This document shows positions 2,733 to 12,447 of a DNA stretch of 12,734 nucleotides, piece after piece. Numbering within the stretch: the first letter of the stretch is position 1; every line of letters begins with the position of its first letter. The translations under genes were made by a program, and so were the position numbers. The stretch is from a virus (taxonomy: Duplodnaviria; Heunggongvirae; Uroviricota; Caudoviricetes). The stretch lies in IMG/VR virus record IMGVR_UViG_2548876862_000016; one strand, 5' to 3'. The notes under the pieces are model-generated. The model was given only the letters and a program-made list of their open reading frames with translations, was not told the DNA's origin and did no database searches.

Positions 2733-3905
2733 ATGGCTCAGGATTACCACCACGGGGTGCGCGTTGTTGAAGTCAACGAAGGCACCCGATCTATTACCAC
2801 GGTGAGCACCGCCATCGTGGGTATGGTCTGCACGGGCGATGATGCCGATGCAAAAATGTTTCCTCTTAATAAACCCGTGCTGATCACTGATGTGCTGACT
2901 GCCAGCGGTAAAGCGGGTGAGTCAGGTACTCTGGCCCGTTCGCTGGATGCCATCGCTGACCAGGCAAAACCCGTGACCATTGTTGTGCGTGTGCCGCAGG
3001 GTGAAACGGAAGACGAAACCACGACCAATATCATCGGCGCAGTGACCGCTGAAGGTAAAAAAACAGGTATGAAAGCCCTGTTATCTGCCCAGTCACAGCT
3101 CGGCGTTAAACCGCGCATTCTCGGCGTGCCAGGCCACGACACCAAGGCGGTAGCTACTGAGTTGCTGAGCGTGGCGCAAAGCCTGCGTGGATTTGCTTAC
3201 CTGTCAGCGTATGGCTGCAAGACAGTGCAGGAGGCGATCACTTACCGCGAAAACTTCAGCCAGCGCGAAGGGATGCTGATCTGGCCTGACTTTACTGGCT
3301 GGGACACGGTGCTGAATGCCGAAGCAACGGCATATGCCACCGCCCGTGCGCTTGGTCTGCGCGCCAAAATTGACGAGCAGACCGGATGGCACAAAAGCCT
3401 GTCCAACGTGGGCGTGAACGGTGTCACCGGAATTTCTGCAGATGTGTTCTGGGATCTGCAGGACCCGGCAACCGATGCAGGTCTGCTGAACCAGAACGAC
3501 GTCACCACGCTTGTGCGTAAAGACGGTTTCCGCTTCTGGGGTTCCCGCTGCCTGAGTGATGACCCGCTCTTTGCCTTCGAAAACTACACCCGCACGGCGC
3601 AGGTGCTGATGGACACGATGGCAGAAGCACACATGTGGGCGGTGGATAAACCGCTTAACCCGTCGCTGGCCCGCGACATTATCGAAGGTATCCGCGCCAA
3701 AATGCGCAGCCTGGTCAGTCAGGGCTATCTCATTGGTGGTGATTGCTGGCTGGATGAGTCGGTGAACGACAAAGACACGCTGAAAGCCGGAAAACTCACC
3801 ATCGACTACGACTACACGCCAGTGCCGCCACTTGAAAACCTGATGCTGCGTCAGCGCATCACCGATCAGTACCTGGTGAATTTCGCCAGCCAGGTCAGCG
3901 CGTAA
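2733..3905 (+). CDS. FI: Contractile tail sheath protein (P2 gpFI)
   Basis: 390 aa, P2 FI-like in size and sequence; AGGAGG 9 nt upstream of the ATG; first gene of the FI-FII-E-T-U-D block. Confidence 0.95.
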
Positions 3906-3914
3906 GGGGACAAC

Positions 3915-4430
3915 ATGGCTTTACCACGCAAATTAAAACACCTGAACCTGTTTAACGACGGGAACAACTGGCAGGGGATCGTTGAGTCGCTGACGCTGCC
4001 GAAATTTACCCGCAAATATGAGAAGTATCGCGGCGGCGGAATGCCGGGTGCGGTGGATGTGGATCTGGGGCTTGATGACAGTGCGCTGGACACAGAATTT
4101 TCCATTGGTGGTACTGAATTGCTGCTGTTTAAACAGATGGGTAAAGCCACGGTGGATGGCATCCAGCTGCGCTTTACCGGCTCTATTCAGCGTGACGATA
4201 CCGGGGAAGTGCAGGCCGTGGAGCTTGTCGTGCGTGGACGTCACAAAGAAGTGGATTCCGGCGAGTGGAAGACGGGCGAAAGCAACACCACCAAAGTGAC
4301 CAGTACCAACAGCTACGCGAAGCTGACCATCAATGGTGAGGTGCTCTATGAAGTGGACCTTATCAACATGGTGGAAATTGTGGACGGTGTGGACCTGATG
4401 GAAGCGCACCGCAACGCCCTCGGCCTCTGA
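3915..4430 (+). CDS. FII: Tail tube protein (P2 gpFII)
   Basis: 171 aa, P2 FII-like; starts 9 nt after the FI stop, with a GGGGA ribosome-binding site. Confidence 0.95.
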   Translation: MALPRKLKHLNLFNDGNNWQGIVESLTLPKFTRKYEKYRGGGMPGAVDVDLGLDDSALDTEFSIGGTELLLFKQMGKATVDGIQLRFTGSIQRDDTGEVQAVELVVRGRHKEVDSGEWKTGESNTTKVTSTNSYAKLTINGEVLYEVDLINMVEIVDGVDLMEAHRNALGL

Positions 4431-4484: not shown

Positions 4485-4787
4485 ATGAGCGATAAGCAGA
4501 CTGAAAAGACCATTCAACTGGATACCCCCATCAAGCGCGGTAAAACAGAAATCACCGAAATTGTGCTGCGTAAACCGCAGTCCGGTGCGCTGCGCGGTAC
4601 ACGCCTGCAGGCCATTATGGATATGGATGTAAACGCGATGATGACCGTGATCCCCCGCATCTCCAGTCCGGCACTGACTGCACAGGAAATTGCAGAGATG
4701 GACCCGGCAGATCTCACTGCCATGTCGGTTGAGGTTGTCACTTTTTTGTTGAAGAAGTCGGTGCTTGCCGGTTTACCGACAGCCTGA
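4485..4787 (+). CDS. E: Tail assembly chaperone (P2 gpE)
   Basis: 100-aa ORF in the P2 position between FII and T; contains the slippery heptamer near its 3' end. Confidence 0.85.
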   Translation: MSDKQTEKTIQLDTPIKRGKTEITEIVLRKPQSGALRGTRLQAIMDMDVNAMMTVIPRISSPALTAQEIAEMDPADLTAMSVEVVTFLLKKSVLAGLPTA

Positions 4788-4921
4788 CGGTTGACGATCT
4801 GGTGGCAGATATCGCCACCATTTTTCACTGGCCGCCATCCGTTACTGACGTTATGCCGCTGACCGAAGTGCTGGAATGGCGGTATAAAGCGATTCAGAGA
4901 AGCGGGGCCAACGATGAGTGA
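4485..4921 (+). CDS. E+E': Tail assembly chaperone frameshift product (P2 gpE+E'), made by a -1 ribosomal frameshift at 4742-4748
   Basis: T_TTT_TTG lies in the E frame (codons ACT TTT TTG). After a -1 slip the reading frame stays open from 4748 to a TGA at 4919-4921, giving about 145 aa (P2 E+E' is 142 aa) and overlapping the T start codon at 4914. Confidence 0.75.
4742..4748 (+). promoter_or_regulatory. Programmed -1 frameshift slippery heptamer TTTTTTG
   Basis: X_XXY_YYZ heptamer in the correct phase, at the conserved position for the tail-chaperone frameshift. Confidence 0.75.
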
Positions 4922-7900
4922 TAACAGCCTGCGTCTGCAGGTCATTCTTAATGCGGTTGACAAGCTCACCCGCCCATTTCGATCTGCGCAGGCCAGTTCA
5001 AGAGAACTGGCTGCTGCTGTCAAAAAATCCCGCGATGCAATAAAGCAGCTTGATCAGGCCGGGAGCAGTCTGGACAGCTTCCGAAAGCTGCAGGCAGAAA
5101 ATCAGAAATTAGGCGACAGGCTGAACTATGCCCGCCAGCGTGCAAATTTGCTCAGTCAGGAACTGGGAGCGATGGGGCCGCCTTCGCAACGTCAGGTTGT
5201 TGCTCTGGGCCGTCAACGGCTGGCTGTTCAGCGCCTGGAAGAACGCCAGAAAAAGCTGCAGCAGCAGACGGCGCTTGTGCGTGCTGAACTGTACCGGGCG
5301 GGAATTTCTGCGAAAGACGATGCGGGAGCAACTGCCCGTTTAGCCCGTGAAACATCACGTTATAACCAGGAACTTTCGAAACAGGAGGCGCGGCTGAAGC
5401 GACTGGGGGAAGCTCAGCGCAGGATGAATGCAGCGCGTGCCAGTTATGCCCGTTCGCTGGAGGTGCGTGATCGTATTGCAGGTGCCGGAGCCACCACCAC
5501 GGCTGCAGGGCTGGCAATGGGTGCGCCAGTGATGGCGGCAGTAAAAAGCTATACCAGCATGGAAGATGCCATGAAAGGTGTGGCAAAGCAGGTCAATGGT
5601 CTGCGTGACGATAATGGCAACCGCACTGCACGTTTTTATGAAATGCAGGATGCCATCAAGGCTGCCAGCGAACAGTTGCCGATGGAAAACGGTGCGGTGG
5701 ACTTCGCTGCACTGGTTGAAGGTGGTGCGCGCATGAACGTCGCAAACCCTGACGACAGCTGGGAAGATCAGAAACGTGACCTGCTGGCCTTCGCCAGTAC
5801 GGCAGCAAAGGCGGCAACAGCCTTTGAGCTGCCAGCGGATGAACTGTCAGAAAGTCTGGGGAAAATCGCCCAGCTCTACAAAATCCCCACCCGCAATATT
5901 GAACAGCTCGGTGATGCGCTGAACTATCTGGATGATAACGCCATGTCGAAAGGGGCAGACATCATTGATGTGATGCAACGTCTGGGCGGTGTGGCTGACC
6001 GTCTGGATTATCGTAAAGCGGCGGCGCTGGGTTCCACCTTCCTGACACTGGGCGCTGCGCCAGAGGTTGCAGCCAGTGCAGCAAACGCGATGGTGCGTGA
6101 ATTGTCCATTGCCACCATGCAAAGCAAGAGTTTCTTTGAAGGGATGAATCTGCTGAAACTCAATCCTGAAGTGATTGAAAAGCAGATGACGAAGGATGCG
6201 ATGGGAACCATCCAGCGCGTGCTGGAGAAGGTAAACGCGCTGCCGCAGGACAAGCGCCTGTCTGCCATGACTATGTTGTTTGGTAAAGAGTTTGGCGATG
6301 ACGCGGCGAAACTGGCAAACAACCTGCCGGAACTGCAGCGTCAGTTAAAACTGACAGCGGGCAATGATGCGCTCGGCTCCATGCAGAAAGAATCCGACAT
6401 TAACAAGGATTCACTTTCTGCGCAGTGGTTGCTGGTCAAAACCGGAGCGCAGAACACCTTCAGCAGCCTGGGCGAAACGCTGCGCCAGCCGCTGATGGAT
6501 ATTCTGTACACGGTGAAAAGCGTCACGGGGGCGTTGCGTCGCTGGGTGGAAGCTAACCCGGAACTGACAGGCACACTGATGAAAGCATCGGCTGTTGTGG
6601 CTGCGGTTACCGTCGGCCTCGGCACCTTAGCGGTGGCGCTGGCTGCAGTGCTGGGGCCGCTGGCAGTGATCCGTCTGGGATTCTCTGTGTTGGGTATCAA
6701 AACGTTATCTTCCGTTACGGCAGCAGTAACTCGAACCAGCAGCGCGTTGTCCTGGCTGGCTGGCGCACCACTGGCACTGCTGCGACGCGGGCTTGCTTCA
6801 TCGGGCAACGCCGCAGGTTTACTTACTGCGCCGTTGTCGTCTTTGCGCCGCACGGCATCACTGACGGGAAATGTCCTGAAAACTGTAGCAGGTGCGCCGG
6901 TTGCACTTTTGCGGTCTGGATTATCCGGTTTACGTGCTGTTGCTGTGATGTTTATGAATCCTCTGGCGGTACTGCGCGGTGGACTGGCTGCCGCAGGCAC
7001 GGTGCTGCGAGTACTGGCATCTGGTCCACTGGCGATGCTGCGCGTTGCCCTGTATGCCATATCTGGTCTGTTAGGTGCTCTGCTCAGTCCAATAGGTCTT
7101 GTGGTTACTGCACTGGCGGGCGTGGCGCTGGTTGTCTGGAAATACTGGCAACCCATCACCGCATTTCTCGGTGGCGTGGTGGAAGGATTCAAAGCGGCGG
7201 CAGGTCCCATCAGTGCAGCGTTCGAACCGCTTAAGCCCGTGTTCCAGTGGATTGGCGACAAAGTGCAGGCGCTGTGGGGCTGGTTTACTGAACTGCTGAC
7301 GCCCGTTAAGTCGACCTCTGCCGAACTGCAGAGCGCAGCGGCAATGGGGCGACGATTCGGGGAGGCACTGACAGAAGGGCTGAATATGGTCATGCATCCG
7401 CTGGACTCCCTGAAATCCGGCGTTTCCTGGTTGCTGGAGAAACTCGGCATTGTCAGTAAAGAGGCTGCAAAGGCGAAACTGCCGGAAAGCGTGACGCGTC
7501 AGCAACCTGCGACGGTGAATGCAGACGGTAAAGTGATGATGTCATCGGGTGATTTTCCGTCATGGGGATATGGCTTTGCGGGGATGTATGACAGCGGCGG
7601 CTATATCCCGCGCGGGCAGTTTGGCATCGTCGGTGAAAACGGGCCGGAAATTGTTAACGGCCCGGCAAACGTGACCAGCCGGAGAAATACAGCTGCACTG
7701 GCTGCCGTTGTCGCCGGAATGATGGGTGTTGCTGCCGCGCCAGCAGAGCTTCCACCGTTGCATCCTTTGGCGCTTCCCGCAAAAGGCGGTGAAGCGATGG
7801 TGAGTCGTGCAGCTACTGTGCCGCCCATTTACCGGATTGAAGCACCGACGCAGATCATCATCCAGACACAGCCAGGACAAAGTGCGCAGGATATTGCGCG

Positions 7901-7991
7901 GGAGGTGGCCCGCCAGCTTGATGAACGTGAACGCAGGCTGAAGGCAAAAGCCAGGAGTAACTACAGCGATCAGGGGGGATACGACGCATGA
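4914..7991 (+). CDS. T: Tail tape measure protein (P2 gpT)
   Basis: 1025 aa; coiled-coil-like N-terminal third, central hydrophobic repeat region, Gly-rich C-terminal part; lies between E/E' and U. Confidence 0.95.
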   Translation: MSDNSLRLQVILNAVDKLTRPFRSAQASSRELAAAVKKSRDAIKQLDQAGSSLDSFRKLQAENQKLGDRLNYARQRANLLSQELGAMGPPSQRQVVALGRQRLAVQRLEERQKKLQQQTALVRAELYRAGISAKDDAGATARLARETSRYNQELSKQEARLKRLGEAQRRMNAARASYARSLEVRDRIAGAGATTTAAGLAMGAPVMAAVKSYTSMEDAMKGVAKQVNGLRDDNGNRTARFYEMQDAIKAASEQLPMENGAVDFAALVEGGARMNVANPDDSWEDQKRDLLAFASTAAKAATAFELPADELSESLGKIAQLYKIPTRNIEQLGDALNYLDDNAMSKGADIIDVMQRLGGVADRLDYRKAAALGSTFLTLGAAPEVAASAANAMVRELSIATMQSKSFFEGMNLLKLNPEVIEKQMTKDAMGTIQRVLEKVNALPQDKRLSAMTMLFGKEFGDDAAKLANNLPELQRQLKLTAGNDALGSMQKESDINKDSLSAQWLLVKTGAQNTFSSLGETLRQPLMDILYTVKSVTGALRRWVEANPELTGTLMKASAVVAAVTVGLGTLAVALAAVLGPLAVIRLGFSVLGIKTLSSVTAAVTRTSSALSWLAGAPLALLRRGLASSGNAAGLLTAPLSSLRRTASLTGNVLKTVAGAPVALLRSGLSGLRAVAVMFMNPLAVLRGGLAAAGTVLRVLASGPLAMLRVALYAISGLLGALLSPIGLVVTALAGVALVVWKYWQPITAFLGGVVEGFKAAAGPISAAFEPLKPVFQWIGDKVQALWGWFTELLTPVKSTSAELQSAAAMGRRFGEALTEGLNMVMHPLDSLKSGVSWLLEKLGIVSKEAAKAKLPESVTRQQPATVNADGKVMMSSGDFPSWGYGFAGMYDSGGYIPRGQFGIVGENGPEIVNGPANVTSRRNTAALAAVVAGMMGVAAAPAELPPLHPLALPAKGGEAMVSRAATVPPIYRIEAPTQIIIQTQPGQSAQDIAREVARQLDERERRLKAKARSNYSDQGGYDA
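6765..7055 (+). repeat. Five degenerate tandem repeats (63-66 nt period) inside T, encoding a hydrophobic 21-22 aa unit (x-P-L-A/S-x-L-R-x-G-L)
   Basis: Repeat units start near 6765, 6828, 6894, 6957 and 7023: APLALLRRGL / APLSSLRRTASL / APVALLRSGL / NPLAVLRGGL / GPLAMLRVAL. Confidence 0.7.
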
Positions 7992-8473
7992 TGATGGTGC
8001 TGGGATTGTACGTGTTTATGCTGCGCACCGTGCCGTATCAGGAGCTGCAGTATCAACGCAGCTGGCGACATGCGGCAAACAGCCGGGTAAACCGACGTCC
8101 GTCCACGCAGTTTCTGGGACCGGACAACGACATGCTGACGCTTTCCGGTGTTCTTATGCCGGAGATAACAGGTGGCAGGCTGTCGTTGCTGGCACTGGAG
8201 CAGATGGCAGAACAGGGGAAAGCATGGCCCCTGATTGAAGGCAGTGGCACGATTTATGGCATGTATGTGATTGAGGGACTGAATCAGACTAAAACGGAGT
8301 TTTTCCGCGACGGTATGCCGCGCCGGATTGAGTTCACCCTGTCGCTCAAACGGGTGGATGAATCCCTGTCCGATATATTCGGTGATCTCAGTGCGCAACT
8401 GAATAATCTGCAGGACACAGCAACGTCTGCCTTAAGCGATATCAGTAAAACGGTGGGAGGGCTGCTGTCATGA
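7988..8473 (+). CDS. U: Tail protein (P2 gpU)
   Basis: 161 aa (P2 U is about 159 aa); ATGA overlap with the T stop; three consecutive ATG codons at 7988-7996. Confidence 0.9.
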   Translation: MMMVLGLYVFMLRTVPYQELQYQRSWRHAANSRVNRRPSTQFLGPDNDMLTLSGVLMPEITGGRLSLLALEQMAEQGKAWPLIEGSGTIYGMYVIEGLNQTKTEFFRDGMPRRIEFTLSLKRVDESLSDIFGDLSAQLNNLQDTATSALSDISKTVGGLLS

Positions 8474-9570
8474 ATTTCAGCTCTGAACTGCTTAACAAAG
8501 GCAACAAAACTCCCGCATTCAGCATCAGTATTGAGGGCAGGGATATCACCACTGTGCTGGATAACCGCCTGATGAGTTTGACGCTGACGGACAATCGGGG
8601 CTTTGAAGCGGACCAGCTTGATCTGGAGCTGGACGACGCCGACGGAAAAATCGTGCTGCCGCGCCGTGGTGCGGTTATTACGCTGGCGCTGGGCTGGAAG
8701 GGGCAGCCGCTTTTCCCGAAAGGGGCATTCACGGTGGACGAGATTGAACACACTGGCGCACCGGACCGCCTGACTATCCGGGCGCGAAGTGCTGATTTTC
8801 GTGAAACGCTGAATACCCGCCGTGAAAAGTCGTGGCACAAGACCACCGTCGGGGAAGTGGTGAAGGAAATAGCTGTGCGGCACAAACTGAAGATGGCATT
8901 GGGTAAAGACCTGTCAGATAAACCCGTGGAACATATAGACCAGACCAATGAGAGTGACGGCAGTTTTCTGATGCGGCTGGCGCGCCAGTACGGTGCTATT
9001 GCGTCGGTGAAAAATGGCAATCTGTTATTCATCCGGCAGGGACAGGGTAAAAGCGCCAGCGGTAAACCACTACCGGTTATCACTATCACACGTAAGGACG
9101 GCGACAGTCACCGCTTTACCCTGGCAGATCGCGGAGCCTACACGGGCGTAATTGCCAGCTGGTTGCATACCCGCGAACCCGCGAAGAATGAAAGCACCAC
9201 GGTGAAGCGTAAGCGCAGGACTAAGAAGCAGAAGAAAGAGCCGGAAGCGAAGCAGGGCGATTACCTGGTGGGTACAGATGAAAACGTGCTGGTACTTAAT
9301 CGCACCTATGCCAACCGGAGCAACGCCGAACGGGCGGCGAAAATGCAGTGGGAACGCCTGCAACGCGGCGTTGCGTCATTCTCGCTACAACTGGCAGAAG
9401 GTCGGGCAGATCTCTACACGGAAATGCCAGTGAAAGTCAGTGGCTTTAAACAGCCGATAGATGATGCGGAATGGACCATTACGACTCTGACGCATACCGT
9501 CAGCCCCGATAACGGTTTTACAACCAGTCTGGAGCTTGAAGTGAGGATTGATGATTTCGAAATGGAATGA
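8470..9570 (+). CDS. D: Tail protein / late gene D product (P2 gpD)
   Basis: 366 aa with a basic KRKRRTKKQKKEPEAK stretch; ATGA overlap with the U stop; last gene of the tail block before ogr. Confidence 0.95.
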   Translation: MNFSSELLNKGNKTPAFSISIEGRDITTVLDNRLMSLTLTDNRGFEADQLDLELDDADGKIVLPRRGAVITLALGWKGQPLFPKGAFTVDEIEHTGAPDRLTIRARSADFRETLNTRREKSWHKTTVGEVVKEIAVRHKLKMALGKDLSDKPVEHIDQTNESDGSFLMRLARQYGAIASVKNGNLLFIRQGQGKSASGKPLPVITITRKDGDSHRFTLADRGAYTGVIASWLHTREPAKNESTTVKRKRRTKKQKKEPEAKQGDYLVGTDENVLVLNRTYANRSNAERAAKMQWERLQRGVASFSLQLAEGRADLYTEMPVKVSGFKQPIDDAEWTITTLTHTVSPDNGFTTSLELEVRIDDFEME

Positions 9571-9626: not shown

Positions 9627-9660
9627 TGTGAATTTAGCAAAAATGGGGAGAACTCGAAAA

Positions 9661-9879
9661 ATGATGATTTGCCCACTGTGTGGAAGTGCCGCCCATACTC
9701 GCAGCAGTTTTCAGGTATCTTCATTGACCAAAGAGCGTTACAACCAGTGCCAGAACATTAACTGCAGCCATACTTTTGTTACCCATGAAACTTTTGTTCG
9801 TTCGATTGCAACGCCAAAAGAGTCAAATCCGGTTCAGCCGCATCCAATGAAATCAGGACAGGTGGCGCTCTCTCTTTGA
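9661..9879 (+). CDS. ogr: Late transcription activator Ogr (zinc-finger, P2 Ogr / 186 B / P4 delta family)
   Basis: CPLCGSAAHTRSS...YNQCQNINCSHTF gives the Cys4 zinc-finger pattern of Ogr. The ORF track starts at GTG 9628, but ATG 9661, 10 nt after GGGGAG, gives the canonical ~72-aa protein beginning MMICPLC. Confidence 0.85.
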   Translation: MMICPLCGSAAHTRSSFQVSSLTKERYNQCQNINCSHTFVTHETFVRSIATPKESNPVQPHPMKSGQVALSL

Positions 9880-10114: not shown

Positions 10115-11800
10115 TTATCCTAATCTTGGCCATACCATGACGATGATTGTCCCTGCCAGCGTCAGCAGGACGTTGGCGATTGCATAGGTGCCCGCATAGC
10201 CCAGCGCCGGGATGTTACTGCGAGCTGTATCACTGATGATCTCCATTGCCGGCGCGCAGGTACGTGCGCCCATCATTGCGCCGAACAACAGCGCGCGGTT
10301 CATTCGCAATACATAAGCACCGAACAAGAAACAGATAACCACGGGCACCAGACTGACAATCAATCCGGCAATCAACATCTGACCGCCAATCGCGCCCAGG
10401 CCGTTATTAATACCGCTACCGGCGCTCAGACCAACGCCTGCCATAAACACCATCAAGCCGAACTCTTTCACCATGCTTAATGCACCCTGCGGAATGTAAC
10501 CGAAGGTCGGGTGGTTAGCACGCATAAAGCCCAGCATAATTCCGGCGAATAACAACCCGGCAGCGTTCCCCATGCCGAAACTGAATGTGCTGAACTGGAA
10601 GGTGATCATCCCGATCATCAGCCCAATAACAAAGAAGGCGCAGAATGCCAGCAGGTCAGTGACCTGGCTGTGAATCGAGATAAAGCCGATGCGATCGGCG
10701 ATGGTTTTTACGCGGCGGGCATCGCCGCTGACTTGTAAAACGTCACCTTTGTTAAGCACGACGTTGTCATCTATCGGCATCTCAATCTGGCTACGAATGA
10801 CGCGGTTAAGGAAGCAACCGTGATCGGTCAACTTCAGTTGTGCGAGACGTTTACCTACAGCGTTATGGTTTTTAACGACCACTTCTTCAGTGACGATACG
10901 CATGTCGAGAAGGTCACGATCGAAAACTTCTTTACCGTTACGGAAGCTGGGATCGAGTCGGGCATGGGCGTCGGGATAGCCTACCAACGCTATTTCATCG
11001 CCCATTTGTAGCACGGCATCACCGTCTGGATTTGCCAGAATCCCGTTACGTCGAATACGTTCAATGTAGCAGCCGGTTTGTCGATAAATACCCAGTTCAC
11101 GCAGATTTTTGCCGTCGGTCCAGGCCACCAGTTCCGGGCCGACGCGATAGGCGCGGATCACCGGTAAATAAACCTTACGGTTGGCATCAGTGTCCAGGCC
11201 ACGTTCGCGGGCGATTTGCTGGGCGCTGGTCTGTAAGTCCTGATGCTGCAATTTCGGCAAGTAACGCGCACCAACAATCAAACTCACCAGACCGATTAAA
11301 TAGGTTAAGGCATACCCGAGGCTCAGATTATCCAGTGCCAGTGAGAGCTGCCTGCTTTCCATGCCGGAATGACGCAGTGTATCGCCAGCACCGACCAGAA
11401 CCGGTGTCGACGTCATAGAACCTGCTAACATACCGGCCGTCAGGCCAATATCCCAGCCAAACAGCTTACCTAACCCTAAGGCGATCACCAGCGCACTGCC
11501 AACCATCACCAGTGCTAACATTAGGTAATTTTTCCCATCGCGAAAAAAAATGGAAAAAAAGTTCGGTCCGGCTTCGACCCCGACGCAGAAAATAAACAGC
11601 ATAAAGCCAAGATTAAGCGCATCGGTGTTAATGCTGAAATGTTGTTGGCCTAATAACAGCGATACGACTAAAACGCCAATGGAATTACCCAGTTGGATCG
11701 AACCAAGTCGTAACTTTCCGAGACATAGCCCAAGCGCGAGGACCACAAATAATAACAGAATGTAATTCCCATTTAACAATTCGGCGACGTTTATATTCAC
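10115..11800 (-). CDS. ybjL: Putative transport protein YbjL (AAE / YidE-YbjL family with two central RCK/TrkA-C domains)
   Basis: 561 aa, [36 protein letters not shown]...; matches E. coli YbjL in length and sequence as I remember it; GTG start at 11800. Confidence 0.93.
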
Positions 11801-12069: not shown

Positions 12070-12447
12070 GTGAAACATAAACAACGTTGGGCGGGGGCAA
12101 TCTGCTGTTTTGTCCTCTTCATTGTGGTGTGCCTTTTTCTGGCGACGCACATGAAAGGCGCTTTTCGGGCTGCCGGGCATCCTGAAATCGGCTTGCTATT
12201 TTTCATTCTTCCTGGAGCAGTCGCCAGCTTCTTTTCACAGCGTAGAGAAGTCCTGAAACCTCTGTTTGGCGCAATGCTGGCGGCACCCTGTTCGATGCTC
12301 ATTATGCGGCTGTTTTTTTCACCGACGCGCTCATTCTGGCAAGAGCTGGCATGGTTACTAAGCGCGGTGTTCTGGTGTGCGCTGGGGGCACTGTGTTTCT
12401 TATTTATCAGTAGTTTGTTTAAACCACAGCACAGAAAAAATCAGTAA
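12070..12447 (+). CDS. ybjM: Inner membrane protein YbjM
   Basis: 125 aa, MKHKQRWAGAICCFVLFIVVCLF...; GTG start with AGGAGG 6 nt upstream; divergent from ybjL as in E. coli. Confidence 0.9.
   Translation: MKHKQRWAGAICCFVLFIVVCLFLATHMKGAFRAAGHPEIGLLFFILPGAVASFFSQRREVLKPLFGAMLAAPCSMLIMRLFFSPTRSFWQELAWLLSAVFWCALGALCFLFISSLFKPQHRKNQ

Follow-up and report, generated by a model that had tools for sequence, protein, structure and literature searches.

We analysed a 12,734-nucleotide (nt) stretch of DNA from a virus of the Caudoviricetes (IMG/VR record IMGVR_UViG_2548876862_000016), the whole of which is referred to here as the window. Our subject is the T gene, which encodes the tape measure protein (TMP) of the tail and carries in its middle an array of repeated units whose number differs among natural alleles. 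T occupies positions 4914-7991 on the plus strand, and the list of open reading frames (ORFs) with their translations gives an ATG start and 1025 amino acids (aa) followed by a stop codon, in agreement with the length stated in an initial annotation made from the letters alone. The protein matches TIGR01760 at 310.6 bits (cut-off 28.8) over aa 200-567 and PF10145 at 67.4 bits (cut-off 33.2), and its family is PHROG 28 (E=7e-197), which is also the best PHROG for gpT of phage P2. Residues 200-567 (5511-6614, plus strand) form the conserved tape-measure core domain and are the least variable part of T among its close homologues. The core is preceded by an N-terminal region (aa 1-199; 4914-5510, plus strand), of which aa 4-178 align with P2 gpT; this region also gives weak SMC/Rad50-type matches, far under the curated cut-offs, which offer a weak hint that it may be coiled-coil-like.

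The genes around T follow the P2 order of sheath, tube, gpE, E', T, gpU and gpD. The sheath gene (2733-3905) and the tube gene (3915-4430) are followed by the gene for the tail assembly chaperone gpE (4485-4787, plus strand; PF10109/PF06528 chaperone pair) and by the E' frame (4802-4921, plus strand; PF06528), which ends 8 nt inside T. A P2-type slippery heptamer, TTTTTTG, forms a -1 frameshift site near the end of gpE (4742-4748, plus strand). Downstream of T lie the gpU gene (7988-8473, plus strand; PF06995) and the gpD hub gene (8470-9570, plus strand; PF05954), which completes the P2-type tail operon. With the frameshifted chaperone pair on its 5' side and baseplate hub genes on its 3' side, T has the genomic context of a tape measure gene, and family models and operon context together bear out its earlier assignment as the T gene of a P2-family prophage.

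T shares 100% identity with its counterpart in E. coli ESBL 15, 98.8% with the one in Escherichia phage 500465-1 (Wadgaonvirus, Peduoviridae) and ~94.5% with those in Klebsiella phage 4LV2017 and its relatives, and the ESBL 15, 500465-1 and 4LV2017-type genes are each 3078 nt long, like the T gene of the window. Compared with the TMP genes of 500465-1, 4LV2017 and Fels-2-type prophages (94-99% nucleotide identity, 3078 nt, annotated as tail tape measure), it shows no material difference and represents the modal allele of the lineage. A related T gene is present in 1089 of 5426 complete E. coli genomes (~20%). These comparisons show T to be a tape measure gene of ordinary type that has been annotated before, and the standard allele of a prophage lineage that is very common. 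The phage records of the 500465-1, 4LV2017 and Fels-2 type hold no annotation of the array or of its copy-number alleles, and in literature searches we found no description of this array or of a natural allelic series.

A scan for the motif P-[LV]-[AS]-x-[LI]-R places copies at aa 582, 619, 640, 662, 683 and 705 (nt 6657, 6768, 6831, 6897, 6960 and 7026). Five of these are in tandem, spaced by 63, 66, 63 and 66 nt, and the sixth lies 111 nt upstream, at 6657. This outlying first unit (aa 582-618, PLAVIRLGF...; 6657-6767, plus strand) is kept across the wider family and is deleted en bloc in 988-aa alleles. Tandem units 1 to 3, which are supported by the motif, by periodicity and by a hidden Markov model (HMM) of the unit, comprise aa 619-639 (PLALLRRGLASSGNAAGLLTA; 6768-6830), aa 640-661 (PLSSLRRTASLTGNVLKTVAGA; 6831-6896) and aa 662-682 (PVALLRSGLSGLRAVAVMFMN; 6897-6959), all on the plus strand. 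Unit 4 (aa 683-704, PLAVLRGGLAAAGTVLRVLASG; 6960-7025, plus strand) is the one duplicated in 1047-aa alleles and lost from 1003-aa alleles. Unit 5 (aa 705-725, PLAMLRVALYAISGLLGALLS; 7026-7088, plus strand), identified by motif, hydropathy and family survey, is probably close to the ancestral unit, since the family survey finds counterparts of it in distant relatives. BLASTP, the family survey and hydropathy also reveal degenerate Pro-initiated units at aa 726-746 (PIGLVVTALAGVALVVWKYWQ) and aa 747-764 (7089-7205, plus strand), and another begins at aa 765. Those starting at aa 726 and 747 fall inside a block homologous to P2 gpT, and aa 726-764 are kept in P2 gpT and family-wide.

The array is strongly periodic at the protein level. 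Over aa 611-730, BLOSUM autocorrelation gave z values of 4.1, 7.7 and 4.8 at lags of 21, 43 and 64, against a largest z of 4.3 in 1000 composition-preserving shuffles; lags 21, 22, 43 and 64 were the only significant ones. The lag-43 periodicity implies that the unit alternates between 21 and 22 aa within a 43-aa super-repeat. Motif scan and autocorrelation therefore agree with the initial annotation, which had described five tandem repeats of 63-66 nt with a P-L-A-x-L-R motif. The HMM scored the five units at 22-27 bits each, as expected of a model built from those same units; in 450 locally shuffled proteins, the informative control, it never scored above 6.2 bits. Among 42 close homologues the array is one of the most variable parts of T, and within the unit only P1, L2, L5 and R6 are well kept while the other positions vary.

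The DNA copies, by contrast with the protein repeat, are old and diverged, and they do not form a classic slippage tract. Tandem Repeats Finder returned nothing on the T gene, even at score 30, and we therefore take the repeat to be a diverged one of the protein and not a tandem repeat of the DNA. Identity between the best DNA copies is 65-76% over 34 nt, no exact direct repeat in 6600-7250 exceeds 10 nt and the longest is out of register, and in DNA autocorrelation only a lag of 129 nt stands out (z=4.2), approximately level with the codon-shuffle maximum of 4.19. Adjacent copies thus lack the high nucleotide likeness of a slippage-prone array of the variable number tandem repeat type, while the second mark of such arrays, copy-number polymorphism in close relatives with junctions at the repeats, is present. 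The repeats had been proposed to be prone to slippage, and this holds only in part: the copies are too diverged for classical slippage, but relatives do show gain and loss of whole units.

We surveyed natural length alleles in the 120 best homologue clusters, using full-length proteins only. Lengths among them include 1047, 1036, 1003, 999, 997, 988, 975, 961 and 950 aa, and alleles with 2 to 6 tandem units are found in nature. In pairwise alignment, P0002 (1047 aa) carries an exact tandem duplication of unit 683-704, and precisely this unit is missing from P0010 (1003 aa); 22 aa at 642-663 are absent from P0118 and P0119 (999 aa), P0040 (961 aa) lacks 64 aa, equal to three units, and P0012 and P0013 (988 aa) lack the 37-aa first unit. 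Five events were inspected at the nucleotide level. The +66-nt allele (1047 aa) duplicates 6963-7028 and the -66-nt allele (1003 aa), its reciprocal product, removes the same 6963-7028, both at a pair of CTGGCG microhomologies (6963-6968 and 7029-7034, plus strand). The -111-nt allele (988 aa; L006) removes 6660-6770 between CTGGCA at 6660-6665 on the left and CTGGCA at 6771-6776 on the right (both plus strand), and the -150-nt allele (975 aa) removes 6963-7112 between the CTGGCGG at 6963 and that at 7113-7119 (plus strand), its right join. Microhomologies of 6-7 nt of the form CTGGCR are thus found at four of the five events, and they correspond to the motif's Leu-Ala codons. The exception is the -192-nt allele (961 aa), which removes 6792-6983, three units in register, with 2 nt shared in the window sequence.

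Indels are concentrated in and around the array. Residues 575-746 make up 17% of the length of T and hold 21 of 34 alignment-defined indels of at least 5 aa (p=5e-9); after alignment-equivalent placements were merged by eye, they hold ~16 of ~25. The alleles also recur on different backgrounds. Outside the array, 1003-aa alleles sit on at least three backbones and 961-aa alleles on two, and 999-aa alleles stand beside 1021-aa relatives; the -22-aa and -64-aa alleles are found on several different backbones. The sub-lineage of the window, with no more than 0.6% divergence outside the array, itself holds 1047-, 1003-, 988- and 950-aa alleles. In a complete chromosome the 1003-aa allele is annotated as an intact gene, and the tail operon around it is intact as well; the 1047-aa allele was read on 24 contigs, one of them of 4.6 Mb. 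Carriers include E. coli ESBL 15 (NZ_CP041678.1) for the 1025-aa form, MFDS1016424 (NZ_CP106924.1) for 1003 aa, GCA_054549795.1 for 1047 aa, GCA_014588955.1 for 988 aa and GCA_043716595.1 for 961 aa. Natural alleles of +22, -22, -37 and -64 aa in intact operons show that whole units come and go while the gene stays intact, and such unit-sized alleles in near-identical relatives support the earlier suggestion that the repeats could make length evolvable.

In a spread sample of 60 matches from complete genomes, the full-length spans cover all 3078 nt except for one of 3077. The T match in NZ_CP059840.2 (E. coli E2348/69, hit H30) spans 3077 rather than 3078 nt at 99.2% identity, which suggests a 1-nt indel and hence either a frameshifted gene or a sequencing error. 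When complete E. coli genomes were searched by megablast with the junction sequences, the deletion junction was matched at 99% identity or above in 6 records and the duplication by no single-piece match; these counts are confounded by pairs of wild-type pieces that are joined as one place, and only the identity bands are usable. A different type of variation is seen in 14 clusters (P0059, P0060 and others; 1053 aa), in which a 30-aa cassette, FTSFAPGLFQSGDALKKLFGLFSGNEAGET, follows aa 611 (~nt 6746) and precedes the tandem units. The cassette resembles the linker of P0123, a 58%-identical relative, and this likeness suggests cassette exchange by recombination, not slippage.

T is 210 aa longer than P2 gpT (NP_046782), for which the ~815 aa given in the initial annotation is correct (815 aa in NC_001895). 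BLASTP aligns aa 4-178 of T with aa 3-177 of P2 gpT (27% identity, E=7e-19) and aa 715-867 with aa 586-736 (44% identity), the second block containing the last transmembrane unit and the KYW-P motif. A global alignment puts 28 of the extra residues in aa 1-581, 101 in aa 582-706 (where P2 has only 554-577), 2 in the conserved block and 79 in the C-terminal aa 868-1025. The array therefore accounts for about half (~101 of 210) of the extra length over P2 gpT. Mapping of the extra length, as the initial annotation had advised, thus traces it to the repeats only in part, with 79 residues being C-terminal and 28 scattered. The description of T as enlarged likewise stands against P2 gpT only: 1025 aa is normal for its lineage and within the range of the family, in which 106 distant representatives of at least 700 aa have a median of 865 aa and ~16% exceed 1000 aa (counted from their listed lengths). 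The C-terminal region (aa 868-1025; 7515-7988, plus strand), which has the motif GYIPRGQFGIVGENGPE and exceeds that of P2 by 79 aa, is another zone prone to indels. Alleles of 1139 aa (P0001, P0015-P0035) have a 114-aa insertion there, at aa 894-928, which by eye looks like a diverged duplicate of ~aa 815-928 with a second GYIPxGQFGIVGENxPE motif, and other relatives have insertions of 31 and 78 aa at the same place.

The unit HMM finds matches in only 2 of the 106 distant representatives. What distant relatives keep is transmembrane segment 1, with an initial unit of the form P-x-x-x-[LM]-[RK] immediately behind it (P-[ILMF]-x-x-[LM]-[RK] over the whole family), together with a penultimate PL..L.. 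unit and a final PIGL...KYW-P unit; the linkers between these elements are 60-190 aa long and dissimilar in sequence, some with repeats of their own. The rarity of HMM matches indicates that the array is a lineage-specific amplification within a length-variable spacer common to the family. The idea that the units are common to the whole P2 family was rejected on the same count, as inspection by eye showed only related single units and unrelated linkers. In one distant relative, P0140 (1041 aa), the linker before KYWEP repeats ~SGGF[ST]GL...A every 14-16 residues, which suggests that independent expansions in the same spacer recur across the family.

We examined hydropathy with a summed insertion-energy scan, using the scale values of Hessa 2005. 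Windows of transmembrane grade lie at aa 562-580 (segment 1, VAAVTVGLGTLAVALAAVL; 6597-6653, plus strand), aa 706-724 and aa 723-741. The segment ISGLLGALLSPIGLVVTALAGVALVVW (aa 716-742; nt 7059-7139) also scores as transmembrane-grade, in keeping with the membrane-like segment that had been noted after the repeats, and so does the unit at aa 726-746. Among the tandem units only unit 5 reaches this level. Residues 582-704 contain 12 Arg+Lys and no Asp or Glu, and units 2-4 have a moderately raised helical hydrophobic moment (0.40 for unit 2) that is reached by 2.5-7% of shuffles. The units had been called hydrophobic at the outset, and this description has to be replaced: they are cationic, three of them are moderately amphipathic, and only the fifth is of transmembrane grade. 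An AlphaFold2 model of aa 540-880, from a 20-sequence alignment, has a predicted local distance difference test score (pLDDT) of 38 and a predicted template-modelling score (pTM) of 0.19; it is nearly all helical by DSSP, which is suggestive at most, as the model is unreliable. PDB sequence searches returned no significant homologue. Marginal matches of aa 582-826 (nt 6657-7391) were to 9j1k_J (FtbJ, E=0.009) and 8kea_G (tmp, E=0.27), which are TMP chains present three per entry; in both cases the alignment falls on the hydrophobic and KYW-P region.

Several known systems bear comparison with T. P2 gpT shares PHROG 28 and the TIGR01760 core with it, as well as the operon position after FI-FII-E/E+E' and before U-D. 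P2 gpT differs in having a continuous ~70-aa hydrophobic stretch (aa 540-612) with no Arg and no P-L-A-x-L-R units, in the place where T has its cationic array. The aromatic 11/18-residue repeats in the TMPs of TP901-1 and lactococcal p2 are likewise internal: their gain or loss is tolerated, they contribute to tail length, and they have been proposed to make that length adaptable (PMC5099701). The TP901-1 tail is shortened by deletions in the repeats and also by deletions in a hydrophobic region, and the study proposes that gain and loss are made easier by repeats (PMC5099701). The T array differs from these aromatic repeats in period (21/22 aa, with a 43-aa super-repeat), in marker residues (Pro1, Leu2, Leu5 and Arg6, not Trp/Phe) and in location, being placed between transmembrane-like segments and not after them; in addition, it belongs to a contractile-tailed phage and its variation is natural, not engineered. 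Three P2-family myophages of Burkholderia have TMPs that span the length of T and tails that grow longer with the TMP, namely KS14 (842 aa, 140-nm tail), KS5 (920 aa, 150 nm) and KL3 (1075 aa, 160 nm) (PMC3091744). They are distant from T in sequence, no repeat array is reported in them, and their slope of tail length on TMP length tempers any prediction of strictly proportional length. The T4 TMP gp29 is, like T, a contractile-tail protein with a predicted transmembrane segment, and that segment is implicated in the genome-delivery conduit (bioRxiv 10.64898/2026.03.06.709160); gp29 has no detectable sequence similarity to T, another domain layout and no reported tandem units. The general ideas that TMP repeats ease length change and that TMP transmembrane segments function in delivery are already published.

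Taken together, the data are best described by a reading to which we assign a probability of roughly 75%, namely that T is a P2-family tape measure with a lineage-amplified, unit-wise copy-variable array that acts mainly as a tolerant spacer in the ruler. In the ruler model, tail length is set by the extended, mostly helical TMP chain in the tail tube, and family knowledge leads us to expect that T is such a ruler. The transmembrane-like segment at aa 562-580 and the unit pair at aa 705-746 flank a spacer that is variable in length and sequence across the family, and in this lineage the spacer would have been filled by amplification of one ancestral helix-forming unit of 21/22 residues, P-L-A-x-L-R-x-G-L, to reach the present state of five tandem copies and one outlier. 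Each copy, although diverged, keeps the codons CCN-CTG-GCR, and misalignment at CTGGCR, through replication slippage or illegitimate recombination, occasionally adds or removes whole units in frame. The product is the natural allelic series of 950-1047 aa that our alignments show. A fresh duplication, as in the 1047-aa allele, creates a perfect 66-nt repeat, and such an allele is predicted to be truly unstable. Most likely the array serves mainly as tolerant spacer length within the ruler. It may also join the segment that enters the inner membrane after ejection and so aid DNA passage, because its units are cationic and lie between transmembrane-grade helices; models from T4, TP901-1 and the T5 type point to this additional role.

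That a change in the array would alter tail length is suggested by the ruler model, the Burkholderia P2-like tails and the TP901-1 deletions. At 0.09-0.15 nm per residue, we estimate that one unit would be worth ~2-3 nm, at most about one tube ring, and the whole array ~9-16 nm. The tail of P2 is 135 nm long, and a 1025-aa T would predict a tail of roughly 155-170 nm.

A number of points weigh against this interpretation. The slope for the P2-like phages (from the data of PMC3091744) is ~0.09 nm per residue, below the 0.15 nm of extended helix, which suggests that not every residue counts as extended helix. The one electron-microscopy figure that turned up for a relative, Felsduovirus MLG42, was rejected as unreliable: it pairs a 234-nm tail with a 128-nm head, too large to be believed for a 31-kb genome, and the same table spreads near-identical phages over 133-188 nm. 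A unit of 21.5 aa would measure ~32 Å as a helix and does not match the tube ring rise of ~38-41 Å, and a structural register of the unit with the tube rings was rejected on these values. The AlphaFold model, unusable at its pLDDT, does not define helix boundaries or any hairpin packing. Length variants are rare in complete E. coli genomes, where the 3078-nt allele is modal. The restriction of the survey to full-length proteins means that the in-frame bias of the indels is partly a matter of ascertainment, and among the singletons that draft assemblies contribute, some could reflect errors or derive from decaying prophages.

A stronger form of the ruler-spacer interpretation, which we regard as doubtful, would make the array a natural tail-length vernier, with gain or loss of a unit shifting the tail by approximately one sheath/tube ring, or alternatively setting conduit size or efficiency. 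In the first case, selection would sort alleles by the thickness of the host envelope or capsule; in the second, the number of cationic helices would set the size or efficiency of the inner-membrane DNA conduit. Under either form, the alleles in E. coli, Salmonella and Citrobacter would provide a ready-made series for ruler tests with no need for engineering.

Among the alternatives to a ruler spacer, the one that fares best is that the array works chiefly as a membrane or channel module and not as ruler padding, its cationic, partly amphipathic helices and the transmembrane helices beside them inserting into the inner membrane after ejection so that copy number would tune a conduit instead of tail length. 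We consider this unlikely as the main function. Some membrane or channel role for the cationic units is plausible by analogy with T4 gp29. In favour of the module stand the transmembrane-grade segments that flank the array, its 12 Arg+Lys with no acidic residue, the moderately raised hydrophobic moments of units 2-4 and an Arg at position 6 that is kept in every unit. The part played by a TMP transmembrane segment in T4 genome delivery, the essential hydrophobic regions of TP901-1 and the weak hits that aa 582-826 give in the PDB, to the TMP chains 9j1k_J and 8kea_G, are in line with it. Such a module is harder to reconcile with the fact that alleles of 2 to 6 tandem units last and diversify in nature and that most non-motif positions vary freely. 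In addition, P2 gpT and 104 of 106 distant relatives are without the units, so a precise stoichiometric role is unlikely.

Less probable still is that the repeats are periodic docking sites for gpE or gpE+E', which would coat the hydrophobic part of the TMP during assembly, with copy number simply following the length of the region to be shielded. The chaperone pair with its P2-type frameshift site does lie immediately upstream of T, gpE is 100 aa here versus 91 aa in P2, and for TP901-1 and lactococcal p2 it has been suggested that hydrophobic regions and repeats bind the chaperones; yet replacement of a TP901-1 repeat by alanines had no effect (PMC5099701 for both), and most relatives with similar gpE proteins lack the units. 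A final explanation, that the length alleles are assembly artefacts or the decay of defective prophages and that the periodicity reflects Ala/Leu/Gly-rich composition bias, draws on the many variant clusters that are singletons from automated assemblies of sequencing runs, on the weak DNA-level repeat signals and on the odd-length P0009, P0069, P0085 and P0103, which look like gene-call artefacts, but it is very improbable, because composition-preserving shuffles never reach the observed periodicity, assemblers have no cause to collapse or expand copies that are only 65-76% identical, the 1003-aa allele is intact beside intact tail genes in a complete chromosome, the 1047-aa allele recurs on its 24 contigs, the +66 and -66 alleles are exact reciprocals at the same microhomology pair, and the 1003-aa alleles form a diversified clade and occur on other backbones as well.

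As an addition to what is known of this kind of gene the repeat polymorphism is modestly new, the new part being a specific, statistically solid repeat family together with repeated natural copy-number change at identifiable 6-7-nt join points. The alleles of 950, 961, 975, 988, 997, 1003, 1025, 1036 and 1047 aa form a graded ruler series on nearly identical backgrounds. With such a series one could ask how the residues of the ruler are translated into discrete sheath rings by a contractile tail, and whether the hydrophobic middle of the TMP is a ruler, a membrane device or both. For prophage annotation, the alleles indicate that variation in the length of T is not automatically misassembly or pseudogenisation.

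The remainder of the window holds two further features of the prophage. Two perfect inverted repeats of 55 nt, at 1-55 and 1942-1996, enclose alternative C-termini of the tail fibre, one with a Gp53-like_C domain on the plus strand and one with a Collar domain on the minus strand, as well as two Caudo_TAP assembly genes on opposite strands. A serine invertase gene (Resolvase and HTH_7 domains) follows at 2018-2590, and from this gene content positions 1-2590 are read as an invertible tail-fibre host-range switch. At the other end, an ORF for an ogr/Delta zinc finger lies within 9628-9879 and is followed by host-type genes for an Asp-Al_Ex/TrkA_C permease (10115-11800, minus strand) and YbjM (12070-12447, plus strand). 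No tRNA or tmRNA was found in the window. In phage record 500465-1 and in strain MFDS1016424 the same prophage end adjoins ssrA/smpB; given host-type genes and no tmRNA here versus ssrA/smpB there, this copy of the prophage appears to lie at a different chromosomal site.

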